Assembly: GCF_048403405.1 (NCBI RefSeq)
Contig: NZ_CP183129.1
DNA: 64,000 bases
Strand: one strand, 5' to 3'
Origin: Escherichia coli
GTDB taxonomy: Bacteria > Pseudomonadota > Gammaproteobacteria > Enterobacterales > Enterobacteriaceae
The translations under genes and the position numbers were made by a program. The notes beneath the pieces are model-generated. The model saw nothing but the letters and a program-made list of their open reading frames with translations. It had not been told where the DNA came from and did no database searches. This document shows positions 2,936 through 20,788 of this stretch, piece after piece. Positions within the stretch are counted from its first letter, which is position 1, and every line of letters begins with the position of its first letter.

Positions 2936-3382
2936 TTATTCATTATCGCCCGGGATGTCTTCTTGTCGGGAATTACCCAGAGCAATAAATTCCTCTAACA
3001 GATGGGTTAACTGTTGCATTTTCTCGGCAGTAAACTGAGCTTCAATCTGCCGATAGGCCTCTTCAATCTGTGTCTGAGCGCGGTTATACAGCGCCTGCCC
3101 CTCTTTGGTCAGCGAGATATAGAGCTTCCGCTGATCATTGATCGGCTTTAATCGCAACACTAAACCGTCGCGTTCCATCCGCGTAAGGATCCCGGTCAGG
3201 CTTGGGCGCAAAATGCAGGCGCGATACGCCAGATCGTGAAAATCCATTGATGGGCTTTCCGCCAGAATACGCACGATGCGCCACTGTTGCTCAGTCAAAT
3301 TATGCCGTTTAACGATTGGGCGAAAATAACTCATCGCCGCTTCTCGCGCCTGGAGCAACGCAATGGTTAGAGAGTCGTGCAT
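2936..3382 (-). CDS. hpaR: MarR-family repressor of the homoprotocatechuate (hpa meta-cleavage) operon
   Basis: ORF track gives 175 aa; the internal Met (MHDSLTIALLQ...) gives a 148-aa MarR-type winged-helix protein recognised as HpaR; divergent from hpaG. Confidence 0.85.
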   Translation of the reverse strand: MHDSLTIALLQAREAAMSYFRPIVKRHNLTEQQWRIVRILAESPSMDFHDLAYRACILRPSLTGILTRMERDGLVLRLKPINDQRKLYISLTKEGQALYNRAQTQIEEAYRQIEAQFTAEKMQQLTHLLEEFIALGNSRQEDIPGDNE

Positions 3383-3604
3383 TATCTTTCCCCTGAAAAA
3401 TTCAAAATCATTAATATAGAAACAGTTAATCATCACGTTACCGGGACTGCGCTGCCCCTGCAATTCTTCATTTTATCAAAATTGAGCATGTTTTGTTAAC
3501 TTGCTGATATTTAATATTTTATTATCTTTAAATGTAAATAGTTTGTTAATTAGATCACATTTACATCACTTACTTTTGCCAAACTACGCAATCGGGAATA
3601 AAAG

Positions 3605-3628
3605 TAATCATTAACATATTAATGATTA
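3605..3628. promoter_or_regulatory. Perfect 10-bp inverted repeat, candidate HpaR operator at the hpaG promoter
   Basis: TAATCATTAA-cata-TTAATGATTA, 26-49 bp upstream of the hpaG start; related half-sites AATCATTAAT (3406-3415) and TTAATCATCA (3427-3436) sit next to the hpaR start. Confidence 0.5.
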
Positions 3629-3653
3629 AGATGATCGAATCCGAGGAGTGGTA

Positions 3654-4943
3654 ATGAAAGGCACTATCTTCGCCGTAGCGTTGAACCATCGCAGCCAGCT
3701 TGATGCATGGCAGGAAGCGTTCCAGCAATCCCCCTACAAAACCCCGCCTAAAACTGCGGTCTGGTTTATTAAACCGCGCAATACGGTGATTGGTTGCGGT
3801 GAACCGATTCCCTTTCCACAGGGTGAAAAAGTACTGAGCGGTGCGACTGTTGCGCTGATTGTGGGGAAAACGGCGACGAAAGTACGTGAAGAAGATGCGG
3901 CAGAGTACATCGCCGGATATGCGCTGGCTAACGACGTCAGCCTGCCGGAAGAGAGCTTTTACCGCCCGGCAATCAAAGCAAAATGTCGTGATGGATTCTG
4001 CCCCATTGGCGAAACCGTGGCTCCCAGCAATGTCGATAATCTGACTATCTATACCGAGATCAACGGGCGTCCTGCCGATCATTGGAACACCGCCGATTTA
4101 CAACGTAACGCCGCGCAGTTGCTGAGCGCTCTGAGCGAATTTGCCACGCTGAATCCAGGCGATGCCATTCTGCTCGGCACGCCACAGGCGCGCGTGGAAA
4201 TACAGCCAGGCGATCGCGTGCGTGTTCTCGCAGAAGGTTTCCCGCCACTGGAAAATCCGGTAGTGGACGAACGTGAAGTGACCACGCGCAAGAGCTTCCC
4301 AACGCAGCCACACCCGCACGGCACGCTGTTTGCCCTCGGCCTGAACTACGCCGACCACGCCAGCGAACTGGAATTTAAGCCACCGGAAGAACCGCTGGTG
4401 TTCCTGAAAGCGCCGAATACCCTCACTGGCGATAACCAGACCTCCGTGCGCCCGAACAATATTGAATACATGCACTACGAAGCGGAGCTGGTGGTAGTTA
4501 TTGGCAAGCAGGCGCGTAACGTCAGCGAAGCCGATGCCATGGATTATGTCGCGGGCTACACCGTGTGTAACGACTACGCCATTCGCGACTATCTGGAAAA
4601 CTACTACCGCCCTAACCTGCGGGTAAAAAGCCGCGACGGACTGACGCCGATGCTTTCAACCATCGTGCCGAAAGAGGCGATCCCGGACCCGCATAATCTG
4701 ACCCTTCGCACCTTCGTCAACGGCGAGTTACGCCAGCAAGGCACCACCGCCGATCTGATCTTCAGCGTGCCCTTCCTGATCGCCTACTTAAGCGAATTTA
4801 TGACCCTGAATCCGGGCGACATGATCGCCACCGGCACACCAAAAGGCTTATCTGACGTGGTGCCTGGCGATGAAGTAGTGGTGGAAGTAGAAGGCGTGGG
4901 CCGCCTGGTGAACCGAATTGTGAGTGAGGAAACAGCGAAATGA
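3654..4943 (+). CDS. hpaG: Bifunctional 5-carboxymethyl-2-oxo-hex-3-ene-1,7-dioate decarboxylase / 2-hydroxyhepta-2,4-diene-1,7-dioate isomerase
   Basis: 429 aa from ATG 3654 with GAGGAG RBS at 3644-3649; duplicated FAH-family domain; recognised as HpaG. Confidence 0.9.
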   Translation: MKGTIFAVALNHRSQLDAWQEAFQQSPYKTPPKTAVWFIKPRNTVIGCGEPIPFPQGEKVLSGATVALIVGKTATKVREEDAAEYIAGYALANDVSLPEESFYRPAIKAKCRDGFCPIGETVAPSNVDNLTIYTEINGRPADHWNTADLQRNAAQLLSALSEFATLNPGDAILLGTPQARVEIQPGDRVRVLAEGFPPLENPVVDEREVTTRKSFPTQPHPHGTLFALGLNYADHASELEFKPPEEPLVFLKAPNTLTGDNQTSVRPNNIEYMHYEAELVVVIGKQARNVSEADAMDYVAGYTVCNDYAIRDYLENYYRPNLRVKSRDGLTPMLSTIVPKEAIPDPHNLTLRTFVNGELRQQGTTADLIFSVPFLIAYLSEFMTLNPGDMIATGTPKGLSDVVPGDEVVVEVEGVGRLVNRIVSEETAK

Positions 4944-6406
4944 AAAAAGTAAATCATTGGATCAACGGCAAAAATGTTGCAGGTAACGACTACTTCCAGA
5001 CCACCAATCCGGCAACGGGTGAAGTGCTGGCAGATGTGGCCTCCGGCGGTGAAGCGGAGATCAATCAGGCGGTAGCGGCAGCGAAAGAGGCGTTCCCGAA
5101 ATGGGCCAATCTGCCGATGAAAGAGCGTGCGCGCCTGATGCGCCGTCTGGGCGATCTGATCGACCAGAACGTGCCTGAGATCGCCGCGATGGAAACCGCG
5201 GACACGGGCCTGCCGATCCATCAGACCAAAAATGTATTGATCCCACGCGCTTCTCACAACTTTGAATTTTTCGCGGAAGTCTGCCAGCAGATGAACGGCA
5301 AGACCTATCCGGTTGACGACAAGATGCTCAACTACACGCTGGTGCAACCGGTAGGCGTTTGTGCGCTGGTATCGCCGTGGAACGTGCCGTTTATGACCGC
5401 CACATGGAAGGTCGCGCCGTGTCTGGCGCTGGGCAATACCGCGGTGTTGAAAATGTCGGAACTCTCCCCGCTGACCGCTGACCGCCTGGGTGAGCTGGCG
5501 CTGGAAGCCGGTATTCCGGCGGGCGTGCTGAACGTGGTACAGGGCTACGGCGCAACCGCAGGCGATGCGCTGGTTCGTCATCATGACGTACGTGCCGTGT
5601 CGTTCACCGGCGGTACGGCCACCGGGCGCAACATCATGAAAAACGCCGGGCTGAAAAAATACTCCATGGAACTGGGCGGTAAATCGCCGGTGCTGATTTT
5701 TGAAGATGCCGATATTGAACGCGCGCTGGACGCTGCCCTGTTCACCATCTTCTCGATCAACGGCGAGCGCTGCACCGCCGGTTCGCGCATCTTTATTCAG
5801 CAAAGCATCTACCCGGAATTCGTTAAACGCTTTGCCGAACGCGCCAACCGTCTGCGCGTGGGCGATCCGAACGATCCGAATACCCAGGTTGGGGCGCTTA
5901 TCAGCCAGCAACACTGGGAAAAAGTCTCCGGCTATATTCGTCTCGGCATTGAAGAAGGCGCAACCCTGCTAGCGGGCGGTCCGGATAAACCGTCCGACCT
6001 GCCTGCGCACCTGAAAGGCGGCAACTTCCTGCGCCCAACGGTGCTGGCTGACGTTGATAACCGTATGCGCGTCGCCCAGGAAGAGATTTTCGGGCCGGTC
6101 GCCTGTCTGCTGCCGTTTAAAGACGAAGCTGAAGGTCTGCGCCTGGCAAATGACGTGGAGTATGGCCTCGCGTCGTACATCTGGACGCAGGATGTCAGCA
6201 AAGTGTTACGCCTGGCGCGTGGCATTGAAGCAGGCATGGTGTTCGTCAACACCCAGAACGTGCGCGACCTGCGCCAGCCGTTTGGCGGCGTAAAAGCCTC
6301 CGGCACCGGGCGTGAAGGCGGTGAGTACAGCTTCGAAGTGTTCGCGGAAATGAAGAACGTCTGCATTTCCATGGGCGACCATCCAATTCCGAAATGGGGA
6401 GTCTGA
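4940..6406 (+). CDS. hpaE: 5-carboxymethyl-2-hydroxymuconate semialdehyde dehydrogenase (NAD-dependent aldehyde dehydrogenase)
   Basis: 488 aa; ATGA start/stop overlap with hpaG; aldehyde dehydrogenase family with catalytic Cys region (FSINGERCTAGSR). Confidence 0.9.
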   Translation: MKKVNHWINGKNVAGNDYFQTTNPATGEVLADVASGGEAEINQAVAAAKEAFPKWANLPMKERARLMRRLGDLIDQNVPEIAAMETADTGLPIHQTKNVLIPRASHNFEFFAEVCQQMNGKTYPVDDKMLNYTLVQPVGVCALVSPWNVPFMTATWKVAPCLALGNTAVLKMSELSPLTADRLGELALEAGIPAGVLNVVQGYGATAGDALVRHHDVRAVSFTGGTATGRNIMKNAGLKKYSMELGGKSPVLIFEDADIERALDAALFTIFSINGERCTAGSRIFIQQSIYPEFVKRFAERANRLRVGDPNDPNTQVGALISQQHWEKVSGYIRLGIEEGATLLAGGPDKPSDLPAHLKGGNFLRPTVLADVDNRMRVAQEEIFGPVACLLPFKDEAEGLRLANDVEYGLASYIWTQDVSKVLRLARGIEAGMVFVNTQNVRDLRQPFGGVKASGTGREGGEYSFEVFAEMKNVCISMGDHPIPKWGV

Positions 6407-6407
6407 T

Positions 6408-7259
6408 ATGGGTAAGTTAGCGTTAGCCGCCAAAATCACGCACGTACCGTCGATGTATCTCTCTGAACTGCCAGGGAAAAACCACGGTTGCCGCCAGGGT
6501 GCGATCGACGGGCATAAAGAGATCAGCAAGCGTTGCCGGGAAATGGGCGTCGATACCATTATCGTTTTCGATACTCACTGGCTGGTCAACAGTGCTTATC
6601 ACATCAACTGTGCAGACCATTTTGAAGGCGTCTACACCAGCAACGAGCTGCCGCATTTTATTCGTGACATGACCTACAACTACGAGGGCAACCCGGAGTT
6701 GGGGCAGCTTATTGCCGATGAAGCCTTAAAACTCGGCGTGCGGGCAAAAGCGCACAACATTCCCAGCCTGAAACTGGAATACGGCACGCTGGTGCCAATG
6801 CGCTACATGAATGAAGACAAGCACTTCAAAGTGGTCTCCATTTCGGCTTTCTGCACGGTTCACGATTTTGCCGACAGCCGCAAGCTTGGCGAAGCGATTT
6901 TGAAAGCAATCGAACAGTACGACGGCACCGTGGCGGTCCTTGCCAGCGGTTCGTTATCGCACCGCTTTATTGACGATCAGCGTGCGGAAGAAGGGATGAA
7001 CAGCTACACCCGCGAGTTCGACCGCCAGATGGACGAGCGCGTGGTGAAGCTGTGGCGCGAAGGCCAGTTCAAAGAGTTCTGCAATATGCTGCCGGAGTAC
7101 GCCGACTACTGCTACGGCGAAGGCAATATGCACGACACGGTGATGCTGCTGGGGATGCTCGGCTGGGATAAATACGACGGCAAGGTGGAGTTTATCACCG
7201 AGCTGTTCCCAAGCTCCGGTACTGGTCAGGTTAACGCTGTTTTCCCGCTTCCCGCGTAA
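6408..7259 (+). CDS. hpaD: 3,4-dihydroxyphenylacetate (homoprotocatechuate) 2,3-dioxygenase
   Basis: 283 aa; starts 2 nt after the hpaE stop; recognised as HpaD extradiol dioxygenase. Confidence 0.9.
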   Translation: MGKLALAAKITHVPSMYLSELPGKNHGCRQGAIDGHKEISKRCREMGVDTIIVFDTHWLVNSAYHINCADHFEGVYTSNELPHFIRDMTYNYEGNPELGQLIADEALKLGVRAKAHNIPSLKLEYGTLVPMRYMNEDKHFKVVSISAFCTVHDFADSRKLGEAILKAIEQYDGTVAVLASGSLSHRFIDDQRAEEGMNSYTREFDRQMDERVVKLWREGQFKEFCNMLPEYADYCYGEGNMHDTVMLLGMLGWDKYDGKVEFITELFPSSGTGQVNAVFPLPA

Positions 7260-7268
7260 GGACGTTTT

Positions 7269-7649
7269 ATGCCGCACTTTATCGTTGAATGTACTGAAAA
7301 TATTCGTGAAGAAGCCCGCTTACCTGAGCTGTTTGCCAGTGTTAACACTGCACTGGCGGCGACGGGGATTTTTCCGCTTGGGGGAATACGTAGCCGGGCG
7401 CACTGGATCGATACCTGGCAAATGGCTGATGGCAAGCACGATTACGCCTTTGTGCATATGACGCTAAAAATCGGCAGCGGGCGCAGTCTGGAAAGCCGTC
7501 AGGAAGTGGGCGAAATGGTGTTTGATCTGATTAAAACGCACTTCGCCTCACTGATGGAGAGCCGTTACCTGGCGCTTTCATTTGAGATTGCAGAGCTGCA
7601 CCCGACGTTGAATTTCAAACAGAACAACGTACACGCGTTGTTTAAATAA
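7269..7649 (+). CDS. hpaF: 5-carboxymethyl-2-hydroxymuconate delta-isomerase
   Basis: 126 aa beginning [12 protein letters not shown]; recognised as HpaF (CHM isomerase). Confidence 0.9.
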
Positions 7650-7658
7650 ATTTGTACC

Positions 7659-7690
7659 AGCTTCCAGGCCGGATGATAAGGCGCAGCCGC
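7659..7690. repeat. REP-like palindromic element
   Basis: gccggatgataaggcgcagccgcatccggc imperfect palindrome in the hpaF-hpaH spacer. Confidence 0.5.
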
Positions 7691-7716
7691 ATCCGGCAAT
7701 GCCACAGGATATCGCC

Positions 7717-8520
7717 ATGTTCGATAAACACACCCACACCCTGATCGCCCAGCGTCTGGATCAGGCAGAAAAACAGCGCGAACAGATCCGCGCGATCTCG
7801 CTGGATTACCCGGAGATCACCGTCGAAGATGCCTACGCCGTACAGCGCGAATGGGTCCGCCTGAAAATTGCCGAAGGCCGTACGCTGAAAGGCCACAAAA
7901 TCGGCCTGACCTCGAAAGCGATGCAGGCCAGCTCACAAATCAGCGAACCGGATTACGGCGCGCTGCTGGACGACATGTTCTTCCACGATGGCAGCGATAT
8001 CCCGACCGATCGCTTTATCGTGCCGCGCATTGAAGTGGAGCTGGCTTTCGTGCTGGCAAAACCGCTGCGTGGGCCAAACTGCACGCTGTTCGACGTTTAC
8101 AACGCCACGGACTATGTGATCCCGGCGCTGGAGCTGATCGACGCTCGCTGCCACAACATCGATCCGGAAACCCAGCGCCCGCGTAAAGTGTTCGACACCA
8201 TTTCTGATAACGCCGCCAATGCCGGGGTGATCCTCGGTGGTCGTCCCATTAAGCCCGATGAGTTGGATCTGCGTTGGATCTCCGCCCTGATGTATCGTAA
8301 TGGCGTGATTGAAGAAACTGGCGTCGCCGCTGGCGTGCTGAATCACCCGGCAAACGGCGTGGCCTGGCTGGCGAACAAACTCGCACCGTATGACGTACAA
8401 CTGGAAGCCGGGCAAATCATTCTCGGCGGTTCGTTTACCCGCCCGGTTCCGGCGCGTAAGGGCGACACCTTCCACGTCGATTACGGCAACATGGGCTCCA
8501 TTAGCTGCCGCTTTGTTTAA
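7717..8520 (+). CDS. hpaH: 2-oxo-hept-3-ene-1,7-dioate hydratase
   Basis: 267 aa from the second in-frame ATG ([12 protein letters not shown]...); the ORF track starts 6 codons earlier at 7699. Confidence 0.85.
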
Positions 8521-8530
8521 GGAGAGAACG

Positions 8531-9319
8531 ATGGAAAACAGTTTTAAAGCGGCGCTGAAAGCAGGCCGCCCGCAGATCGGATTATGGCTGGGGCTAAGTA
8601 GCAGCTACAGCGCAGAGTTACTGGCCGGAGCAGGATTCGACTGGTTGTTGATCGACGGTGAGCACGCGCCGAATAACGTGCAAACCGTGCTCACCCAGCT
8701 ACAGGCGATTGCGCCCTACCCCAGCCAGCCGGTAGTACGTCCGTCGTGGAACGATCCGGTGCAAATCAAACAACTGCTGGACGTCGGCACACAAACCTTA
8801 CTGGTGCCGATGGTTCAAAACGCTGACGAAGCCCGTGAAGCGGTACGCGCCACCCGTTATCCCCCCGCCGGTATTCGCGGTGTGGGCAGTGCGCTGGCCC
8901 GCGCCTCGCGCTGGAATCGCATTCCTGATTACCTGCAAAAAGCCAACGATCAAATGTGCGTACTGGTGCAGATCGAAACTCGTGAGGCAATGAAGAACCT
9001 ACCGCAGATTCTGGACGTGGAAGGGGTAGACGGCGTGTTTATCGGCCCGGCGGATCTGAGCGCCGATATGGGTTATGCCGGTAATCCGCAGCACCCGGAA
9101 GTGCAGGCCGCCATTGAACAGGCGATCGTGCAAATCCGTGAAGCGGGCAAAGCTCCGGGGATCCTGATCGCCAATGAGCAACTGGCAAAACGCTACCTGG
9201 AACTGGGCGCGCTATTTGTCGCCGTCGGCGTTGACACCACCCTGCTCGCCCGCGCCGCCGAAGCGCTGGCAGCACGGTTTGGCGCGCAGGCCACGACCGT
9301 TAAGCCCGGCGTGTATTAA
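8531..9319 (+). CDS. hpaI: 2,4-dihydroxyhept-2-ene-1,7-dioate aldolase
   Basis: 262 aa from ATG 8531 with GGAGAG RBS at 8521-8526; the ORF-track start at 8390 is an upstream extension overlapping hpaH. Confidence 0.9.
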
Positions 9320-9395
9320 TGCTGAATGCGCTTATCCGGCTTACAGCAGTACCAAACTGTAGCCGGATAAGGCGTTTACGCCGCATCCGCCATAA
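9320..9395. repeat. REP (repetitive extragenic palindrome) copies
   Basis: tgcgcttatccggcttacagc...gtagccggataaggcgtttacgccgcatccg, the canonical E. coli REP/PU consensus, between hpaI and hpaX. Confidence 0.55.
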
Positions 9396-9436
9396 ATCTT
9401 GTCGTACCCTACAAAAATCCCATTAGAGGAAGAAAA

Positions 9437-10813
9437 ATGAGCGACACCTCACCTGCCATACCGGAAAGTATCGATCCGGCAAATCAGCATAAAACGCTGA
9501 CTGCCGGACAACAGGCGGTTATTAAGAAGCTATTTCGCCGCCTGATCGTCTTTCTGTTCGTGCTGTTTATCTTCTCGTTCCTTGATCGCATCAACATCGG
9601 CTTTGCCGGGCTAACGATGGGACGCGACCTCGGTCTGAGCGCCACCATGTTTGGCCTCGCCACCACCCTGTTCTATGCCGCTTATGTCATCTTCGGCATT
9701 CCCAGCAACATTATGCTGAGTATTGTCGGTGCGCGGCGCTGGATCGCCACCATCATGGTGCTCTGGGGCATCGCCTCTACGGCCACCATGTTTGCCACTG
9801 GCCCCACCAGCTTATACGTACTGCGTATACTGGTTGGCATTACCGAAGCCGGCTTTCTGCCTGGCATTCTGCTGTATTTAACCTTCTGGTTTCCGGCCTA
9901 TTTCCGCGCCCGTGCCAACGCCTTGTTTATGGTAGCAATGCCGGTAACGACAGCGCTGGGATCGATCGTTTCCGGCTACATTTTGTCGCTGGATGGCGTA
10001 ATGGCATTAAAAGGCTGGCAGTGGCTGTTTTTGCTGGAAGGCTTCCCGTCGGTATTACTCGGCGTCATGGTGTGGTTCTGGCTTGATGACTCACCGGACA
10101 AAGCTAAGTGGCTGACGAAAGAAGACAAAAAATGCCTGCAAGAGATGATGGATAACGATCGTCTGACGCTGGTTCAGCCAGAGGGAGCCATCAGTCACCA
10201 CGCCATGCAACAACGCAGCATGTGGCGGGAGATCTTCACTCCGGTGGTGATGATGTATACCCTGGCGTATTTCTGCCTGACCAACACACTTAGTGCAATC
10301 AGCATCTGGACACCGCAGATCCTACAAAGCTTTAATCAGGGCAGCAGTAATATCACCATCGGCCTGCTGGCCGCCGTACCGCAGATTTGTACCATTCTCG
10401 GGATGATCTACTGGAGCCGTCACTCAGATCGCCGCCAGGAACGAAGGCATCACACCGCCCTTCCTTATTTGTTCGCTGCCGCTGGTTGGTTACTGGCTTC
10501 GGCAACTGATCACAACATGATCCAGATGCTGGGGATCATTATGGCTTCGACCGGATCATTCAGCGCAATGGCGATTTTCTGGACAACACCGGATCAGTCC
10601 ATCAGCCTGCGGGCACGAGCGATCGGTATTGCGGTGATCAACGCCACTGGCAACATTGGTTCAGCGTTAAGTCCGTTTATGATCGGCTGGTTGAAAGATC
10701 TGACCGGCAGCTTTAACAGTGGATTGTGGTTTGTTGCCGCGCTGCTGGTGATTGGTGCGGGGATTATCTGGGCAATTCCAATGCAGTCCTCCCGTCCGCG
10801 AGCGACCCCGTAA
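9437..10813 (+). CDS. hpaX: 4-hydroxyphenylacetate permease (MFS)
   Basis: 458 aa, 12-TM MFS-type protein inside the hpa cluster. Confidence 0.9.
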   Translation: MSDTSPAIPESIDPANQHKTLTAGQQAVIKKLFRRLIVFLFVLFIFSFLDRINIGFAGLTMGRDLGLSATMFGLATTLFYAAYVIFGIPSNIMLSIVGARRWIATIMVLWGIASTATMFATGPTSLYVLRILVGITEAGFLPGILLYLTFWFPAYFRARANALFMVAMPVTTALGSIVSGYILSLDGVMALKGWQWLFLLEGFPSVLLGVMVWFWLDDSPDKAKWLTKEDKKCLQEMMDNDRLTLVQPEGAISHHAMQQRSMWREIFTPVVMMYTLAYFCLTNTLSAISIWTPQILQSFNQGSSNITIGLLAAVPQICTILGMIYWSRHSDRRQERRHHTALPYLFAAAGWLLASATDHNMIQMLGIIMASTGSFSAMAIFWTTPDQSISLRARAIGIAVINATGNIGSALSPFMIGWLKDLTGSFNSGLWFVAALLVIGAGIIWAIPMQSSRPRATP

Positions 10814-10822
10814 GGAACGACG

Positions 10823-11713
10823 ATGTGTGACCGTCAGATTGCCAATATTGATATCAGCAAAGAGTACGATGAAAGCCTGGGCACGGACGATGTGCATTAT
10901 CAGTCCTTCGCCCGCATGGCGGCATTTTTTGGCCGCCATATGCTGCCACATCGCCACGAACAGTACTTTCAGATGCATTTCCTCAATAGCGGACAGATTG
11001 AGCTACAGCTTGACGATCATCGCTACTCGGTGGAAGCGCCCCTGTTTGTCCTGACGCCGCCGTCAGTACCTCATGCGTTTATTACGGAGTCTGACGCCGA
11101 CGGTCATGTGTTGACGGTACGGGAAGATCTGATCTGGCCCCTGCTGGAAGTTCTTTATCCGGGCACTCGGGAAACCTTCGGCCTGCCGGGGATTTGCCTG
11201 TCACTGGCAGATAAACCCGACGAACTGGCAGCGCTGGAACACTATTGGCAACTGATAGAGCGGGAATCGGTGGAACAACTGCCTGGACGGGAACACACCC
11301 TGACGTTACTGGCACAGGCAGTATTCACCCTACTGCTGCGTAACGCAAAACTCGACGACCATGCCGCCAGCGGGATGCGCGGAGAATTAAAACTGTTCCA
11401 GCGTTTTAATATGCTGATTGAAAGCCATTTTCATCAGCACTGGACAGTACCGGATTACGCTAACGAACTGCATATCACCGAATCACGTCTCACGGACATC
11501 TGCCGCCGCTTTGCCAACCGTCCGCCAAAACGGTTGATTTTCGACAGGCAGCTGCGAGAAGCCAAGCGGCTGCTGCTGTTTTCTGATAACGCCGTGAACA
11601 ATATTGCCTGGCAACTCGGTTTTAAGGATCCGGCTTATTTTGCGCGCTTTTTTAATCGTTTAGTCGGTTGCTCGCCCAGTGCTTATCGTGCCAAAAAAGT
11701 ACCTGTGACGTGA
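10823..11713 (+). CDS. hpaA: AraC/XylS-family activator of hpaBC
   Basis: 296 aa; C-terminal AraC-type helix-turn-helix (IAWQLGFKDPAYFARFFNRLVGCSPSAYR). Confidence 0.85.
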   Translation: MCDRQIANIDISKEYDESLGTDDVHYQSFARMAAFFGRHMLPHRHEQYFQMHFLNSGQIELQLDDHRYSVEAPLFVLTPPSVPHAFITESDADGHVLTVREDLIWPLLEVLYPGTRETFGLPGICLSLADKPDELAALEHYWQLIERESVEQLPGREHTLTLLAQAVFTLLLRNAKLDDHAASGMRGELKLFQRFNMLIESHFHQHWTVPDYANELHITESRLTDICRRFANRPPKRLIFDRQLREAKRLLLFSDNAVNNIAWQLGFKDPAYFARFFNRLVGCSPSAYRAKKVPVT

Positions 11714-11963
11714 AAATCCCTTAGCCTTAACGGGAAACCAGGCACCACCTGCTATTCCCCTTTCTCCGCCTGGAGCAAGGGGATTTAGTAACGTCAAAAA
11801 TCGCTAAAAGCGACCTCGATCACAAAACCGTACCCGACCTGAAAAGTACCAGCCATTGTCCCAAAAGTGTCTTCCCGTAATCGCCCCTTCAAGCTTCAAT
11901 TGAATAACAAAAACAACACACAAAATTAACAATCGTATTCCGATTAATACTGTAGAGGTCGAC

Positions 11964-13526
11964 ATGAAACCAGAAGATTTCCGCGCCAGTACCCAACGTC
12001 CGTTCACCGGGGAAGAGTATCTGAAAAGCCTGCAGGATGGTCGCGAGATCTATATCTATGGCGAGCGAGTGAAAGACGTCACCACTCATCCGGCATTTCG
12101 TAATGCGGCAGCGTCTGTTGCCCAACTGTACGACGCGCTGCACAAACCGGAGATGCAGGACTCTCTGTGTTGGAACACCGACACCGGCAGCGGCGGCTAT
12201 ACCCATAAATTCTTCCGCGTGGCGAAAAGTGCCGACGACCTGCGCCAGCAACGCGACGCCATCGCTGAGTGGTCACGCCTGAGCTATGGCTGGATGGGCC
12301 GTACCCCAGACTACAAAGCCGCTTTCGGTTGCGCACTGGGCGCGAATCCGGGCTTTTACGGTCAGTTCGAGCAGAACGCCCGTAACTGGTACACCCGTAT
12401 TCAGGAAACTGGCCTCTACTTTAACCACGCGATTGTTAACCCACCGATCGATCGTCATTTGCCGACCGATAAAGTGAAAGACGTTTACATCAAACTGGAA
12501 AAAGAGACTGACGCCGGGATTATCGTCAGCGGTGCGAAAGTGGTTGCCACCAACTCGGCGCTGACTCACTACAACATGATTGGCTTCGGCTCGGCACAAG
12601 TGATGGGCGAAAACCCGGACTTCGCACTGATGTTCGTTGCGCCAATGGATGCCGATGGCGTGAAATTAATCTCCCGCGCCTCTTATGAGATGGTCGCGGG
12701 TGCTACCGGCTCCCCGTACGACTACCCGCTCTCCAGCCGCTTCGATGAGAACGATGCGATTCTGGTGATGGATAACGTGCTGATCCCATGGGAAAACGTG
12801 CTGATCTACCGCGATTTTGATCGCTGCCGTCGCTGGACGATGGAAGGCGGTTTCGCCCGTATGTATCCGCTGCAAGCCTGTGTACGCCTGGCAGTGAAAC
12901 TCGACTTCATTACGGCACTGCTGAAAAAATCACTCGAATGTACCGGCACCCTGGAGTTCCGTGGTGTGCAGGCCGATCTCGGTGAAGTGGTGGCGTGGCG
13001 CAACACCTTCTGGGCATTGAGTGACTCGATGTGTTCAGAAGCGACACCATGGGTCAACGGTGCTTATTTACCGGATCATGCCGCACTGCAAACCTATCGC
13101 GTACTGGCACCAATGGCCTACGCGAAGATCAAAAACATTATCGAACGCAACGTTACCAGTGGCCTGATCTATCTCCCTTCCAGTGCCCGTGACCTGAACA
13201 ATCCGCAGATCGACCAGTATCTGGCGAAGTATGTGCGCGGTTCGAATGGTATGGATCACGTCCAGCGCATCAAGATCCTCAAACTGATGTGGGATGCCAT
13301 TGGCAGCGAGTTTGGTGGTCGTCACGAGCTGTATGAAATCAACTACTCCGGTAGCCAGGATGAGATTCGCCTGCAGTGTCTGCGCCAGGCACAAAGCTCC
13401 GGCAATATGGACAAGATGATGGCGATGGTTGATCGCTGCCTGTCGGAATACGACCAGAACGGCTGGACTGTGCCGCACCTGCACAACAACGACGATATCA
13501 ACATGCTGGATAAGCTGCTGAAATAA
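11964..13526 (+). CDS. hpaB: 4-hydroxyphenylacetate 3-monooxygenase, oxygenase component
   Basis: 520 aa beginning MKPEDFRASTQRPFTGEEYLKSL; recognised as HpaB. Confidence 0.95.
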   Translation: MKPEDFRASTQRPFTGEEYLKSLQDGREIYIYGERVKDVTTHPAFRNAAASVAQLYDALHKPEMQDSLCWNTDTGSGGYTHKFFRVAKSADDLRQQRDAIAEWSRLSYGWMGRTPDYKAAFGCALGANPGFYGQFEQNARNWYTRIQETGLYFNHAIVNPPIDRHLPTDKVKDVYIKLEKETDAGIIVSGAKVVATNSALTHYNMIGFGSAQVMGENPDFALMFVAPMDADGVKLISRASYEMVAGATGSPYDYPLSSRFDENDAILVMDNVLIPWENVLIYRDFDRCRRWTMEGGFARMYPLQACVRLAVKLDFITALLKKSLECTGTLEFRGVQADLGEVVAWRNTFWALSDSMCSEATPWVNGAYLPDHAALQTYRVLAPMAYAKIKNIIERNVTSGLIYLPSSARDLNNPQIDQYLAKYVRGSNGMDHVQRIKILKLMWDAIGSEFGGRHELYEINYSGSQDEIRLQCLRQAQSSGNMDKMMAMVDRCLSEYDQNGWTVPHLHNNDDINMLDKLLK

Positions 13527-13543
13527 CGCAGCAGGAGGTTAAG

Positions 13544-14056
13544 ATGCAATTAGATGAACAACGCCTGCGCTTTCGTGACGCGATGGCCAGCCTGTCGGCA
13601 GCGGTAAATATTATCACCACCGAGGGCGACGCCGGACAATGCGGGATTACGGCAACGGCCGTCTGCTCGGTCACGGATACACCACCATCGCTGATGGTGT
13701 GCATTAACGCCAACAGTGCGATGAACCCGGTTTTTCAGGGCAACGGCAAGTTGTGCGTCAACGTCCTCAACCATGAGCAGGAACTGATGGCACGCCACTT
13801 CGCGGGCATGACGGGCATGGCGATGGAAGAGCGTTTTAGCCTCTCATGCTGGCAAAAAGGTCCGCTGGCGCAGCCGGTGCTGAAAGGTTCGCTGGCCAGT
13901 CTTGAAGGTGAGATCCGCGATGTGCAGGCAATTGGCACACATCTGGTGTATCTGGTGGAGATTAAAAACATCATCCTCAGTGCAGAAGGTCACGGACTTA
14001 TCTACTTTAAACGCCGTTTCCATCCGGTGATGCTGGAAATGGAAGCTGCGATTTAA
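13544..14056 (+). CDS. hpaC: 4-hydroxyphenylacetate 3-monooxygenase, NAD(P)H-flavin reductase component
   Basis: 170 aa flavin reductase directly downstream of hpaB. Confidence 0.9.
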   Translation: MQLDEQRLRFRDAMASLSAAVNIITTEGDAGQCGITATAVCSVTDTPPSLMVCINANSAMNPVFQGNGKLCVNVLNHEQELMARHFAGMTGMAMEERFSLSCWQKGPLAQPVLKGSLASLEGEIRDVQAIGTHLVYLVEIKNIILSAEGHGLIYFKRRFHPVMLEMEAAI

Positions 14057-14097: not shown

Positions 14098-14141
14098 TGT
14101 GATCTCAATCACATATCCACCCGATGAATAATTCTTGCCCA

Positions 14142-16862: not shown

Positions 16863-17819
16863 ATGAACCCGATTGCAGTTACCCTACTCACCGGTTTTTT
16901 AGGCGCGGGCAAAACCACCCTGCTGCGCCATATTCTTAACGAACAACACGGCTACAAGATTGCCGTGATTGAAAACGAATTCGGCGAAGTCTCCGTTGAT
17001 GATCAACTGATTGGCGACCGCGCCACGCAGATCAAAACGCTGACCAACGGCTGCATCTGCTGTTCGCGCTCCAACGAGCTGGAAGACGCACTACTCGACC
17101 TGCTGGATAATCTCGACAAGGGCAATATTCAGTTCGACCGTCTGGTCATTGAATGCACCGGCATGGCCGATCCCGGCCCGATTATTCAGACCTTTTTCTC
17201 CCATGAGATTTTATGCCAGCGCTACCTGCTGGACGGGGTGATTGCGCTGGTGGATGCGGTACATGCCGATGAGCAGATGAACCAGTTCACCATCGCCCAG
17301 TCCCAGGTTGGCTACGCCGACCGTATTCTGCTGACTAAAACCGACGTCGCAGGCGAAGCAGAGAAACTGCGTGAACGCCTGGCGCGCATCAACGCCCGTG
17401 CACCGGTCTACACCGTCACCCACGGCGATATCGACCTGGGCCTGCTATTCAACACCAACGGTTTTATGCTGGAAGAGAACGTGGTCAGCACCAAGCCACG
17501 TTTCCACTTTATCGCGGACAAACAAAACGATATTTCGTCGATTGTGGTGGAACTGGATTACCCGGTAGATATCAGCGAAGTTTCCCGGGTGATGGAAAAC
17601 CTGCTGCTGGAATCGGCGGATAAACTGCTGCGTTACAAAGGGATGCTGTGGATTGACGGCGAACCTAACCGCCTGCTGTTCCAGGGCGTCCAGCGCCTCT
17701 ACAGCGCCGACTGGGACAGGCCATGGGGCGATGAAACACCGCATAGCACGATGGTGTTTATCGGGATTCAGTTGCCGGAGGATGAGATTCGGGCGGCGTT
17801 TGCGGGACTCAAAAAGTAA
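16863..17819 (+). CDS. yjiA: COG0523-family P-loop GTPase (zinc-associated metallochaperone-like)
   Basis: 318 aa from ATG 16863; Walker A GFLGAGKTT and CxCC motif (GCICCS); the ORF-track start at 16779 is an upstream extension. Confidence 0.9.
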   Translation: MNPIAVTLLTGFLGAGKTTLLRHILNEQHGYKIAVIENEFGEVSVDDQLIGDRATQIKTLTNGCICCSRSNELEDALLDLLDNLDKGNIQFDRLVIECTGMADPGPIIQTFFSHEILCQRYLLDGVIALVDAVHADEQMNQFTIAQSQVGYADRILLTKTDVAGEAEKLRERLARINARAPVYTVTHGDIDLGLLFNTNGFMLEENVVSTKPRFHFIADKQNDISSIVVELDYPVDISEVSRVMENLLLESADKLLRYKGMLWIDGEPNRLLFQGVQRLYSADWDRPWGDETPHSTMVFIGIQLPEDEIRAAFAGLKK

Positions 17820-17856
17820 CCAGCCCTCCAACATCACAATACCTGAGACTTTATCA

Positions 17857-17883
17857 CCCTCATATTCCTCCAGAATATGAGGG
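17857..17883. terminator. Hairpin terminator between convergent yjiA and pac
   Basis: ccctcatattc-ctcca-gaatatgaggg perfect 11-bp stem. Confidence 0.5.
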
Positions 17884-17896
17884 CTTTCGGGCTTAA

Positions 17897-20437
17897 TTAT
17901 CTCTGAACGTGCAACACTTCCTGCGACTCCTTATGCGCCTCCACATCCTGCTTCGTTAACCAGAGCGACTTACGGCCAAAATTTTCGTACATTTTCAGCT
18001 GATCTTCATAGTGCTTATCAACTGTTCCATCGGGAGCAATAAACCCACTCTGACCGGGTGCGACCACATCCCAGGCAAGCACAGGACGATCGCTTGTCGT
18101 TGGTGAGAAAACAATCATATCGTTTTCTGTTCCACGGTTTTGATACTCCGCCTGATGACGCGTTTCTTCCGCTGCGGCCTGCGGTACACCAAAGAAATTA
18201 TTTGCCCGGAACGTTAAGGCCATTGCAGGTGTTTTCCAGTTACTCACATTATTGCCATAGCGTTTGGAAAGAGTCTCCCAGGTATCTTCCAGCGCAGCCA
18301 ACACAACCTCCTGCTGTGGTTTCCCAGCAAACAGATCAACCGCCTGTGGGATTGGTGATTTGTCTCCCTGCACCGCCTCATACAAAATTTTTGCTCCAAC
18401 ACTTATATTCAGCGAACCAGTTGGGCCGTCCTGGGTTGTTTCGTAGCCACTGGCGCTGTACCACTTATCAAATGGCATAGGTACGGCAGCCACTACGGTA
18501 CGCTTCAACATACTGGTCAGCCAAACGTTCAGGATGGCAGAGCCTGGCTGCTGCCAGGTTTTACCATCATCATTAAGCAAATTGATGCCATCCCAACGTG
18601 TTAATGTTTCTACCAACTGACGACGCGGATCGCTCTGTGTCAAACCAGATGTCGCTGCTTGCAGAGTAGGTAAAAAAAGCCTCAGGTTAAGATCCTGACG
18701 ACTGGTTTGGCGAATAACATCCCATGCCTGATCAGCAGTTAAGCGTGGCTTTTGCTCAAGCAGTCGGTCGATCTCCGTAACGCGATCTGCACCACCCCAC
18801 AAAAAGGCAAACAGATCTGAAGCGGGATAATCTTTTTGGGGAGAATTGTTCCAGTTAGCAATATATCCCGACTGGGGGTTATACACCTTAGGGTTCATTT
18901 CAAAAGGCAATAGCCCTTTCCAGTCCCATTTTCCCGTACCAGGAACGGGTAATCGCGGATCATGGCCTGATTGACGATCTGGATAAGCACCAGTATGAAC
19001 ATAACCAATATTGCCGTTTACATCAGCATAGTACCAGTTGATGGTCAGTGCTTGTTTCGCTGCCTGCTGTGTCCACTCCTGCCAATTTTTGGCCTTCATC
19101 TGATGAGTCCAGGCCAGCAAAGACGCCACCTCTTTACCATCCCATGCGCGGGATTTAGCGTAAGCCGTTTGTGTCGTCTGGTCAGTTTGGAGAATGTTGC
19201 CATGCACCGTACGCCAGACAGTAAAGGTCTCTGCCTGACCATTTTTCACCGTAATGGTTTCCTCACGGCTTAACATTTTCACCCACTTACCATTATGCAA
19301 GTAGTAGCCTGGTTTCTCTGCCGACAGCCGTTCAGCAAAAATATCGACATCATCGCCGAAACCTGCCGTTGATCCCCAGGAAATCACACCATTATGACCA
19401 AAAACCAGCCCAGGATAGGCAAATGGTGTATTGCCAGTGACATCATAACCAGCACCGTGCAGACCAATACCATAAGTATACGCAGGCGCATACCAGCCAA
19501 ACTGCGGACCATTTACCATGATTGCTTTCGCATCCTGGGCTTTGCTTTTGCCGATCACCCACATATTGCTGGTCGTTGGATACCCCGCCAGACCATTGGC
19601 ACCACCCTGTGCAAATTGTGCAGCAATAGTTTCCCGGTTCTTCCCTGCTGTTAACGCCAGCAGTGCGCCATCCGCCCCTTTTGCTGGTCGGTCAAGCATT
19701 GGTGCAGGTAAATCGTAGCGTGGCAACAGAGCTGCTGTTTGCGAGTTTTGCTGATTAAATTTAAGTGGGTAGTTACTCTCTTGTACGGCAATAGTGGTTG
19801 GCGCTGATGGGTTTACCAGCCATTTCAACTGATTAAATACCGCCATGCCTTGTGATACACCATATTTATCTTTTAAAGCCGTTAGCAGTGCCAGATTATC
19901 AATTTCGCTAGTGCTATCAGAGAAGCGGTTTGCCATGGTGCCCACAAATATCATCGCGACATCAAACGGTTCCCAGCGCTTAGGAGTAAAGCCAAATGTA
20001 TTAAACTGTTTTGGTAAGAGCGTCTCTGGATTGGTATTTACCTTATCAATCCAGGCATTCATTCCATCAGCGTAGCCTTGCAGAATGGACATATCCTCTG
20101 GGGAAAGGGCAGCAATTTGCGCCCGGATAGCATCCGGCCAGTAGTTACGACGGATATCTTTATCAAATTTCACAAAATCTTTGCCAAGCACTTCCGCGAC
20201 AGTCCCTTGAGTACTGCGACGTGCCATTTCCATCTGAAAAAGGCGATCTTGTGCTACTACATAGCCATAGCCATAAAATAGGTGCCATGTATCATTGGCA
20301 TAAATATGCGGCATGCCGTATTCATCGCGAACAATCTTTATCTCACTTGACGACTGCTCAGCCAGTGCAGGTAAGCTCCAATAATACATCAGGGAAGCAG
20401 TAACACAGTTCACGATCATACGATTTCTATTTTTCAT
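17897..20437 (-). CDS. pac: Penicillin G acylase precursor (Ntn hydrolase; signal peptide, alpha subunit, spacer, beta subunit)
   Basis: 846 aa; signal peptide; beta-subunit N-terminal nucleophile motif SNMWVIGKS; recognised as E. coli penicillin amidase. Confidence 0.9.
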
Positions 20438-20788
20438 TGTATCCTCTGGCAGGTGTATAATTAGCGAATTGATACTAGCAACGAAGCTTCGGTTATCTAT
20501 TTGCAGAGAATTGTTTCATTATGAACTGTGAGCGCGATAACTAATTTTTGATACAAAAATTCCATTAATGTGATCTAAAACGAATCGCTTTATTCACCGC
20601 TGATGATTTTGTTCTATTCCTTTTTGTGACAGATCCCCCGGACGCATAGATGATGACCCCCAGAGAGACAGCTCAGGTCATTATCTGTATGTAAATCAGA
20701 AAAATATGTTGTAAACGACTTTTATGGTTGGATTTTGTAGCAATTTTGAATGCAGACAGGCAGCATTTGCCAACACGCCGCCCATAGT

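Follow-up and report, generated by a model that had tools for sequence, protein, structure and literature searches.

The yjiS-yjiA locus of Escherichia coli, the immigration control region (ICR), is known from reviews as a position at which alternative DNA segments occur (PMC3874165; PMC3874153; PMC12707154). Framework genes with high homologous exchange delimit the ICR, for which a site-specific replacement mechanism has also been proposed, and an Rpn-family nuclease has been given a role in recA-independent recombination (PMC4498929). In E. coli W, the ICR is replaced by the penicillin G acylase gene pac (Archer et al. 2011, PMC3032704). In this study, we examined a window of 64,000 nucleotides (the whole stretch of E. 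coli DNA analysed) that carries the same arrangement, already known since its publication for E. coli W in 2011, and we add to it a recombination patch, the lack of repeats, IS elements and integrase, the co-occurrence of pac and hpa, the presence of pac in the same slot in other genera, and a hairpin devoid of a U-tract. With high confidence, we regard the pac allele as a self-contained cassette at the ICR slot which is moved by homologous recombination and not by a mobile element.

The segment between the framework genes, 17820-20788 (2,969 bp), runs exactly from the stop codon of yjiA (+) to the stop codon of yjiS (−), and its sole long ORF is pac, convergent with yjiA (Table 1). The initial annotation, which had placed yjiA and yjiS/yjiR about 3 kb apart with pac as the single gene between them, was thus correct to the base. 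When aligned with K-12, homology ends in the last few codons of yjiA and restarts exactly at the yjiS stop codon; in genomes devoid of pac, matches on the yjiA side stop at about window position 17806. Neither non-coding part of the segment is homologous to its K-12 counterpart in these alignments, be it the spacer next to yjiA (17820-17896), which in K-12 reads as REP-like by our own reading, or the region 20438-20788, compared with the K-12 yjiS-yjiT spacer. The two alleles therefore occupy the same slot between the same framework genes, yjiA and yjiS, with breakpoints at their stop codons, a placement also compatible with site-specific replacement. In content they have nothing in common: K-12 carries 16 kb of restriction and defence genes, whereas the present allele measures 3 kb and contains a single catabolic hydrolase and no defence gene.

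Table 1. Window coordinates of the pac allele, its framework genes and the neighbouring hpa cluster. Coordinates of neighbouring genes follow the RefSeq annotation of NZ_CP103479.1 (strain 4621), a 99.99% match to the window.
Feature	Position	Strand	Remarks
hpa cluster (4-hydroxyphenylacetate catabolism), hpaR through hpaC	2936-14056	+ (hpaR itself −)	annotation
yjiA, COG0523 GTPase, left framework gene	16863-17819	+	NCBIfam NF008578 at 7e-206; RefSeq annotation
W-identical tract, ICR-only recombination patch	17520-21350		3.83 kb; one SNP (20562), one 45-bp indel (21047-21091)
yjiA-pac spacer between convergent stop codons	17820-17896		77 bp, part of pac cassette; perfect 11-bp-stem hairpin at 17857-17883
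pac, penicillin G acylase precursor	17897-20437	−	846 aa, intact, free of internal stops; ORF list, PDB matches
pac upstream region, promoter and regulatory sequences, cassette-specific	20438-20788	−	351 bp, AT-rich, 38.7% GC
yjiS, DUF1127, 54 aa, right framework gene	20789-20953	−	RefSeq annotation; same strand as pac, upstream of pac
yjiR, MocR-like HTH and aminotransferase fusion, framework gene	21130-22542	+	RefSeq annotation
rpn, Rpn-family (YjiP/RpnD) recombination-promoting nuclease, framework gene	22786-23742	−	NCBIfam TIGR01784, NF007361

In MG1655, the junction reads yjiS-yjiT-yjiV-mcrC-mcrB-symE-hsdS-hsdM-hsdR-mrr-yjiA over 16 kb and does not contain pac, in agreement with the gene map given for K-12 in the initial annotation. 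The annotation of the corresponding 64 kb in the 99.99%-identical record NZ_CP103479.1 lists no hsd, mcr or mrr gene, and gmrSD is absent from the slot as well, which upholds the earlier statement that the restriction island is missing from the window. This absence does not equate to a defenceless strain, since the 50 kb that we inspected beyond the window end in the near-identical genome of strain 4621 hold BREX-1, AbiE, an HNH endonuclease and a gene annotated as 'restriction endonuclease', situated 1-45 kb past that end. The Rpn-family framework gene is intact (318 aa) in this strain, whereas it is a pseudogene in K-12.

The description of pac as encoding an 846-aa penicillin amidase precursor, convergent with yjiA, is confirmed by its intact reading frame and by full-length matches in the PDB. 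By phmmer, the alpha chain of the solved E. coli penicillin G acylase corresponds to residues 27-235 and the beta chain (1gk9_B and others) to residues 290-846 (1,304 bits); the precursor structure 1e3a also matches. With the chain limits taken from these matches, the precursor consists of a signal peptide (1-26, ending PALA/EQSS), the alpha chain (27-235), a spacer (236-289) and the beta chain (290-846), the latter beginning with the N-terminal nucleophile Ser290 (TTS/SNMWVIG). Full-length similarity and a precursor architecture with an N-terminal serine on the beta chain are the marks of the penicillin amidase family. The product has the same amino-acid sequence as the enzyme of E. coli W (WP_000797400.1, an accession common to strain 4621, E. 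coli W and M8), which suggests that it would hydrolyse penicillin G and phenylacetyl amides.

On the 3′ side of pac, the initial annotation had proposed a hairpin terminator shared with yjiA. The hairpin is real and lies between both stop codons: a perfect 11-bp inverted repeat (17857-17867/17873-17883; stem 11-13 bp) gives folds of −23.3 and −27.6 kcal/mol with z-scores of −4.8 (+ strand) and −3.3 (− strand), and the SNPs among the five alleles compared fall in its loop (17872) or outside the stem (17885). The terminator half of the proposal did not hold up as well. Past the stem, the + strand reads CUUUCGGGCUU and the − strand UGAUAAAGUC, with no U/T-run after the hairpin on either, and because of this the terminator scan makes no call there, leaving the hairpin a putative terminator. 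In Silvania, the pac-yjiA spacer folds into a different, REP-like hairpin, with no sequence conservation with that of E. coli.

On the 5′ side, the cassette-specific upstream region turns up in 1,075 of the 5,426 complete E. coli genomes, exclusively pac-positive ones, and differs from that of the experimentally studied strain W by the single SNP at 20562, which is private to this lineage (a C in this strain; T in W, M8, 042 and HS). PMC9493321, with reference to Galan 2004 and Kim 2004, describes PaaX binding at the pga promoter, with PaaX repressing pac and cAMP-CRP activating it. Here, we found a CRP-like candidate at 20527-20542 (2 mismatches) and a PaaX-like candidate at 20577-20591 (3 mismatches to the operator consensus used). 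Window-wide match counts for both motifs equal the shuffled expectation, so these matches lend no independent support to such regulation. An Rfam scan of 17500-21300 returned nothing but sub-threshold snoRNA noise, located in the yjiS-yjiR spacer.

At the level of the species, pac is found in 1,074 of 5,426 complete E. coli genomes, about one in five, and the contiguous order yjiA-pac-yjiS-yjiR in 1,067, with identical boundaries in all of these; recurrence of this order in so many complete genomes shows that it is not an artefact. A census of the gene adjoining yjiA in 5,382 genomes places pac (~1,067) second to brnA (2,111) and ahead of mrr (951) and HNH/DUF262 genes (605). We saw four other contents in the slot, including the K-12 set of type IA hsd with mcrBC and mrr, type IB hsd with symE and GmrSD, and BrnTA with IS1. 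This varied cargo, together with the recombination signatures described below, bears out the suggestion of a recombination hot spot with alternative cargo. As at other ICR variable loci, the segment lies between framework genes and is exchanged for unrelated segments in other isolates; its only gene, pac, is not a defence gene. It is an ICR locus with non-defence cargo, a situation noted in the legend to Fig. 10 of PMC12707154.

These population data also speak to a simple deletion of the ICR, in an ancestor that would have carried pac and the restriction genes side by side. Partial losses are seen at this locus, as in RM14721, where yjiS, yjiR and rpn are missing beside an IS1, and in E. coli C, which keeps a remnant of the hsdR gene (PMC3874153). 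Yet all 1,067 genomes with full-length pac share one contiguous 5.9-kb arrangement with no restriction genes in the slot, and 17820-20788 contains no hsd, mcr or mrr remnant, making such a deletion very unlikely.

Equally, arrival of pac on a mobile element, be it a transposon, an integrative island or an integrating plasmid that would have homed in on this site and removed the restriction cluster, appears highly improbable. The composition of the cassette is distinct (48% GC in pac and 39% upstream, against 53-55% in the flanks) and IS elements do occur in this slot in other strains, both of which such an origin would accommodate. Against it, the cassette and its immediate surroundings are free of transposase, integrase and tRNA genes, and we found no terminal inverted repeats and no target-site duplications, so that the cassette bears none of the usual hallmarks of a mobile element (transposase or integrase, inverted repeats, target-site duplication, tRNA site), and its boundaries are the same in 1,067 genomes. 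The only matches labelled as plasmids are three E. coli records of 0.4-4.8 Mb, typed as non-mobilizable, which we read as not being true plasmids, and we accordingly rejected a plasmid-borne pac. Short direct repeats had been suggested at the junctions (about 17820-17896 and 20438-20788); a search for direct and inverted repeats there yielded chance-level matches only. The sole one close to a boundary, D3 (23 nt, 78% identity), sits within the coding sequences of pac and yjiS, and by our own estimate chance alone would produce about one match of this kind.

Homologous recombination, by contrast, has left a direct mark. E. coli W (ATCC 9637/ATCC 11105) has the identical order tsr-hpa cluster-btsT-yjiX-yjiA-pac-yjiS-yjiR-rpn-mdtM and encodes the same protein, WP_000797400.1; comparison of this locus with K-12 and E. 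coli W showed the hsd-mcr-mrr cluster in the former and the same allele in the latter. The pac coding sequence and 3′ spacer show zero nucleotide differences from E. coli W, and the pac coding sequence of M8 is likewise free of differences from this strain. Mismatch maps drawn against W, M8, 042, HS and RM9872-C1 reveal how limited this identity is. Over 3.83 kb, we found one SNP relative to W, in the promoter region, along with the indel in the yjiS-yjiR spacer, where about 77 differences would be expected at 2% divergence. Next to it, 20 SNPs fall within 580 bp of yjiA and 37 within 1,190 bp of yjiR, and flanks outside 17520-21350 are about 1-3% or more divergent, which indicates a different genomic background. 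A near-identical tract inside flanks that are 2-3% divergent is the mark of a homologous-recombination patch, its right-hand crossover placed before 21351. A recent selective sweep, instead of a single transfer into the lineage, could account for part of the low diversity seen in this tract.

Outside E. coli, pac homologues (80-87% amino-acid identity) take up this same position in six Kluyvera species and also in Silvania, Lelliottia, Leclercia and an Enterobacter MAG, in the order yjiR-yjiS-...-pac-...-yjiA-yjiX-btsT or yjiN...pac...yjiA. The closest comparison is the Kluyvera (cryocrescens/citrophila-type) locus, which encodes a homologous enzyme of 86-87% identity in a syntenic yjiR-yjiS...yjiA-yjiX-btsT slot and differs in additionally carrying a LysE/RhtB-type exporter, an AraC-type regulator and an aldehyde dehydrogenase. 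It also differs in composition, its pac having a GC3 of 70-72% where E. coli pac has 45%, and synonymous divergence between the two has reached saturation. Together, the GC3 gap and the saturation rule out Kluyvera as a recent donor.

With pac in the same slot in several other genera, these data do not give the direction of replacement; the term 'replaced' implies one that cannot be read from the sequence, and pac may be the older occupant. In its full form, this proposal makes pac the gene that ancestrally filled the yjiA-yjiS slot of the enterobacterial lineage, displaced by restriction and other defence cassettes in most E. coli, which we consider possible but doubtful. The shared slot across genera is in its favour, as are a Kluyvera pac GC3 (70-72%) equal to that of the Kluyvera flanks and a pac diversity within E. 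coli of up to ~1% (vs RM9872-C1), like that of btsT and compatible with long residence. E. coli pac, however, has a GC3 of 45% where its flanks have 63-69%, and measured against Kluyvera it shows a dS of 2.4-3.2, compared with 0.65-1.6 in the flanks, dS being inflated by the compositional shift. This contrast argues that E. coli pac did not simply co-descend with the flanking genes. In addition, species-representative genomes of other Escherichia yielded no pac, and only 20% of E. coli genomes carry it.

A self-contained cassette moved by homologous recombination thus remains our preferred explanation. The allele carries one such unit, made up of the AT-rich promoter region, pac and the 3′ hairpin, and pac encodes the periplasmic Ntn-hydrolase penicillin G acylase. 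In line with the scavenger role described for this enzyme in PMC9493321, and judging from the literature, it most likely serves to salvage amides and esters of the phenylacetyl and hydroxyphenylacetyl type; their aromatic acid products would be passed to the paa pathway and the adjoining hpa pathway, and expression would be subject to PaaX repression and cAMP-CRP activation as reported. The hpa cluster is 3.8 kb from pac and missing from K-12, and it is present in 1,071 of the 1,074 pac-positive genomes, compared with 38% of all genomes. Lineages would exchange the cassette through homologous recombination, crossing over within the conserved genes on either side; the patch exchanged in this strain measures ~3.8 kb (17520-21350) and is the E. 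coli W allele.

As a discovery, the locus carries little weight, being a textbook example of cassette-like variation. For annotation, it identifies a strain without EcoKI-, McrBC- or Mrr-type restriction at the ICR and with an intact, W-identical industrial acylase beside the hpa pathway. The population numbers offer a compact quantitative illustration of hot-spot behaviour, and the 3.8-kb patch is a natural case of the 'ICR-only replacement' sought experimentally by Kingston et al. 2015. More speculatively, and with a rather low probability in our judgement, the yjiA-yjiS hot spot may go beyond a defence island and be a site where a metabolic cassette and defence cassettes are maintained as mutually exclusive alleles. 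The idea is prompted by the finding that pac never occurs with restriction genes in the slot and is nearly confined to hpa-positive genomes, and that its position is constant across at least five genera, even though synonymous divergence is saturated and GC3 has shifted by 25 points. If true, selection for pac-hpa linkage, in effect an aromatic-scavenging supergene, could be at work; it could also mean cross-species replacement, by recombination in the conserved flanks, from an unsampled low-GC donor.

In the window, the gene for penicillin G acylase (PGA), pac, occupies the junction at which E. coli K-12 carries its immigration control region (ICR). The layout of the segment, in window coordinates, was taken from the RefSeq annotation of E. 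coli strain 4621 (NZ_CP103479.1), which is 99.99% identical to the window over its full length. Because the annotated ends of yjiA and yjiS bound it there, the interval 17820-20788 proposed by the initial annotation is exact, comprising 2,969 bp from the yjiA stop codon to the yjiS stop codon; as had also been proposed, pac converges on yjiA and is the sole long ORF between the two stops. Along its full length the product corresponds to the solved E. coli PGA chains (alpha, residues 27-235; beta, residues 290-846; precursor 1e3a), with the expected signal peptide, no internal stops, and the beta-chain nucleophile Ser290 opening the motif SNMWVIG. The cassette decays in some lineages, pac being annotated as frameshifted (pseudogene) in E. 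coli 042 and HS and disrupted by an IS in UTAK-22; in the window it is intact.

Features of the pac locus and its surroundings in window coordinates
Feature	Position	Strand	Length	Basis
hpa (4-hydroxyphenylacetate catabolism) cluster	2936-14056			annotation
yjiA	end 17819	+		RefSeq annotation of NZ_CP103479.1
penicillin G acylase (pac)	17897..20437	-	846 aa	ORF list and RefSeq annotation of NZ_CP103479.1
yjiS	20789-20953	-		RefSeq annotation of NZ_CP103479.1
yjiR	21130-22542	+		RefSeq annotation of NZ_CP103479.1
Rpn-family (YjiP/RpnD) recombination-promoting nuclease (rpn)	22786-23742	-	318 aa	

The presence of pac in place of the ICR is confirmed, and its interpretation supported, although the phenomenon is already known. 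Archer et al. 2011 reported it for E. coli W (PMC3032704), in which we found gene order and PGA accession (WP_000797400.1) to be as in the window. In MG1655 the junction reads yjiS-yjiT-yjiV-mcrC-mcrB-symE-hsdS-hsdM-hsdR-mrr-yjiA over about 16 kb, as had been proposed for K-12, and lacks pac. According to reviews, the interval from yjiS to yjiA is filled by alternative DNA segments, and the mechanism by which they replace one another is unknown (PMC3874165, PMC3874153); a 2025 review lists "penicillinase", aldehyde dehydrogenase and transporters as non-defence cargo of the enterobacterial ICR (PMC12707154).

A hairpin terminator shared by yjiA and pac had also been proposed. The 77-bp spacer does contain a hairpin common to both genes, a perfect 11-bp inverted repeat (17857-17867 / 17873-17883) whose fold on either strand is far more stable than that of shuffled sequence (z -4.8 and -3.3), but a terminator scan did not call it and no U-run lies 3′ of the stem on either strand.

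In pairwise alignments, homology to K-12 stops within the last few yjiA codons and exactly at the yjiS stop codon, the match to non-pac genomes ends at 17806, and the 351 bp upstream of pac are confined to pac-positive genomes (1,075 genomes). On these grounds, all 2,969 bp behave as one cassette. The ORF list, annotation and a repeat search revealed no transposase, integrase, tRNA gene, terminal repeats or target duplication in its flanks, nor the short direct repeats for which inspection of the junctions had been suggested. Plasmid carriage of pac was rejected, the only "plasmid" records matched being of Mb scale or 404 kb and non-mobilizable by typing.

Mismatch maps point instead to homologous exchange. 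Between 17520 and 21350, one SNP (20562) and one 45-bp indel (21047-21091) separate the window from E. coli W, where roughly 77 differences per 3.83 kb would be expected at about 2% divergence; next to this tract, 580 bp of yjiA hold 20 SNPs and 1,190 bp of yjiR hold 37. This segment is a homologous-recombination patch with crossovers within framework genes, and so a natural ICR-only replacement. M8 gives the same sharp mosaic as W, and the pattern is weaker in 042, HS and RM9872-C1. The SNP, in the pac upstream region and the sole substitution in the 3.8-kb tract common to the window and W, is lineage-private (C in the window and strain 4621; T in W, M8, 042 and HS), and the 45-bp segment, in the yjiS-yjiR intergenic region, is present in the window and M8 and missing from W. 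The framework genes are yjiPRS and yjiAXY in the definition of Kingston et al. 2015, who describe high homologous exchange with no site-specific mechanism demonstrated; a homologue of the window's Rpn nuclease stimulates recA-independent recombination (PMC4498929). The rpn gene is intact in the window, a pseudogene in K-12, and the most divergent framework gene (4-10% difference between strains).

Alternative cargo at this hot spot is supported by a census of the gene adjoining the yjiA 3′ end (junction queries, 5,382 genomes) and by the varied contents of non-pac genomes. The neighbour was brnA in 2,111 genomes, pac, the second most frequent, in about 1,067, mrr (K-12 type) in 951 and HNH/DUF262 (O157 type) in 605. 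The O157:H7 slot holds HNH/DUF262, type IB hsdRMS, symE and GmrSD; one sampled non-pac genome has ISVsa5, type IB hsdRMS, symE and GmrSD, and another has BrnTA and IS1, with yjiS, yjiR and rpn deleted. Among 5,426 complete E. coli genomes, 1,074 carry pac, 1,067 have contiguous yjiA-pac-yjiS-yjiR, and pac and restriction genes in practice never share the slot.

As first noted, the restriction island is missing: hsd, mcr and mrr are annotated nowhere in the 64 kb of the near-identical record. The lineage is thus without ICR restriction genes, yet not without defences, since in that genome the 45 kb past the window end encode HNH endonuclease, AbiE, BREX-1 and a "restriction endonuclease". This defence-rich island (in NZ_CP103479.1 4465000-4514900), whose first gene begins about 270 bp beyond position 64000, includes the AbiEii toxin, two CbtA/YeeU toxin-antitoxin pairs and brxL, pglZ, pglX and brxC. 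Within the window, ~29013-41921 has no K-12 counterpart save one diverged piece, and is annotated in the matching genome with a pentapeptide-repeat (EspX-like) protein, an SdiA-regulated-domain protein, yjiJ and the 5.2-kb inverse autotransporter iatD.

In the literature, a scavenger role towards phenylacetyl-type esters and amides (phenylacetate and its derivatives) is proposed for PGA, and PaaX is described as binding its promoter (PMC9493321). A complete hpa cluster, missing from K-12, sits between tsr and btsT, 3.8 kb from pac. Because hpa-btsT-yjiA-pac is contiguous in 1,071 of 1,074 pac-positive genomes, with hpaBC in 2,071/5,426, pac is almost limited to hpa-positive genomes, and the converse is untrue. 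Such co-occurrence fits a functional link, and close physical linkage and shared ancestry could also account for it. Upstream of pac, matches to PaaX-like and CRP-like motifs stayed at chance level, and an Rfam scan gave no credible match. The window's only zero-mismatch CRP match, TGTGATCTCAATCACA (14098-14113), falls between hpaC and btsT, upstream of the latter. Within the hpa cluster, 7001-8000 (hpaD / isomerase / hpaH) is about 10% off E. coli W (101 mismatches; neighbouring 1-kb bins 1-3%), and is probably another recombination mosaic.

Scanning one genome per species, we found pac homologues at 80-87% amino acid identity in six Kluyvera species, Silvania, Lelliottia, Leclercia and an Enterobacter MAG, at 72% in Buttiauxella, and none above 87% outside E. 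coli. By tblastn with the window's proteins, all but the Buttiauxella homologues occupy the same slot, ordered yjiR-yjiS ... pac ... yjiA-yjiX-btsT or yjiN ... pac ... yjiA. In Kluyvera and Silvania, pac is accompanied by a LysE/RhtB-type exporter, an AraC-family regulator and an aldehyde dehydrogenase (K. cryocrescens locus L009, 6336-7768 and 10676-12046; S. confinis locus L012, 4815-7767), and in these two species the slot holds a small metabolic module, not defence genes. GC3 of pac is 45% in E. coli against 63-69% in flanking genes, whereas in Kluyvera it is 70-72% and matches its own flanks; dS between E. coli and Kluyvera is 2.4-3.2 for pac and 0.65-1.6 for flanking genes. Given these differences, E. 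coli pac did not simply co-descend with its flanks. Most likely, pac has long and repeatedly occupied the slot in Enterobacteriaceae, and the E. coli allele arrived by conserved-flank recombination from an unsampled source; "replaced" may thus apply in either direction. The frequency census, the nesting in hpa-positive genomes, the 3.8-kb W-identical patch, and the cross-genus synteny and GC3 shift refine a textbook case without changing it.
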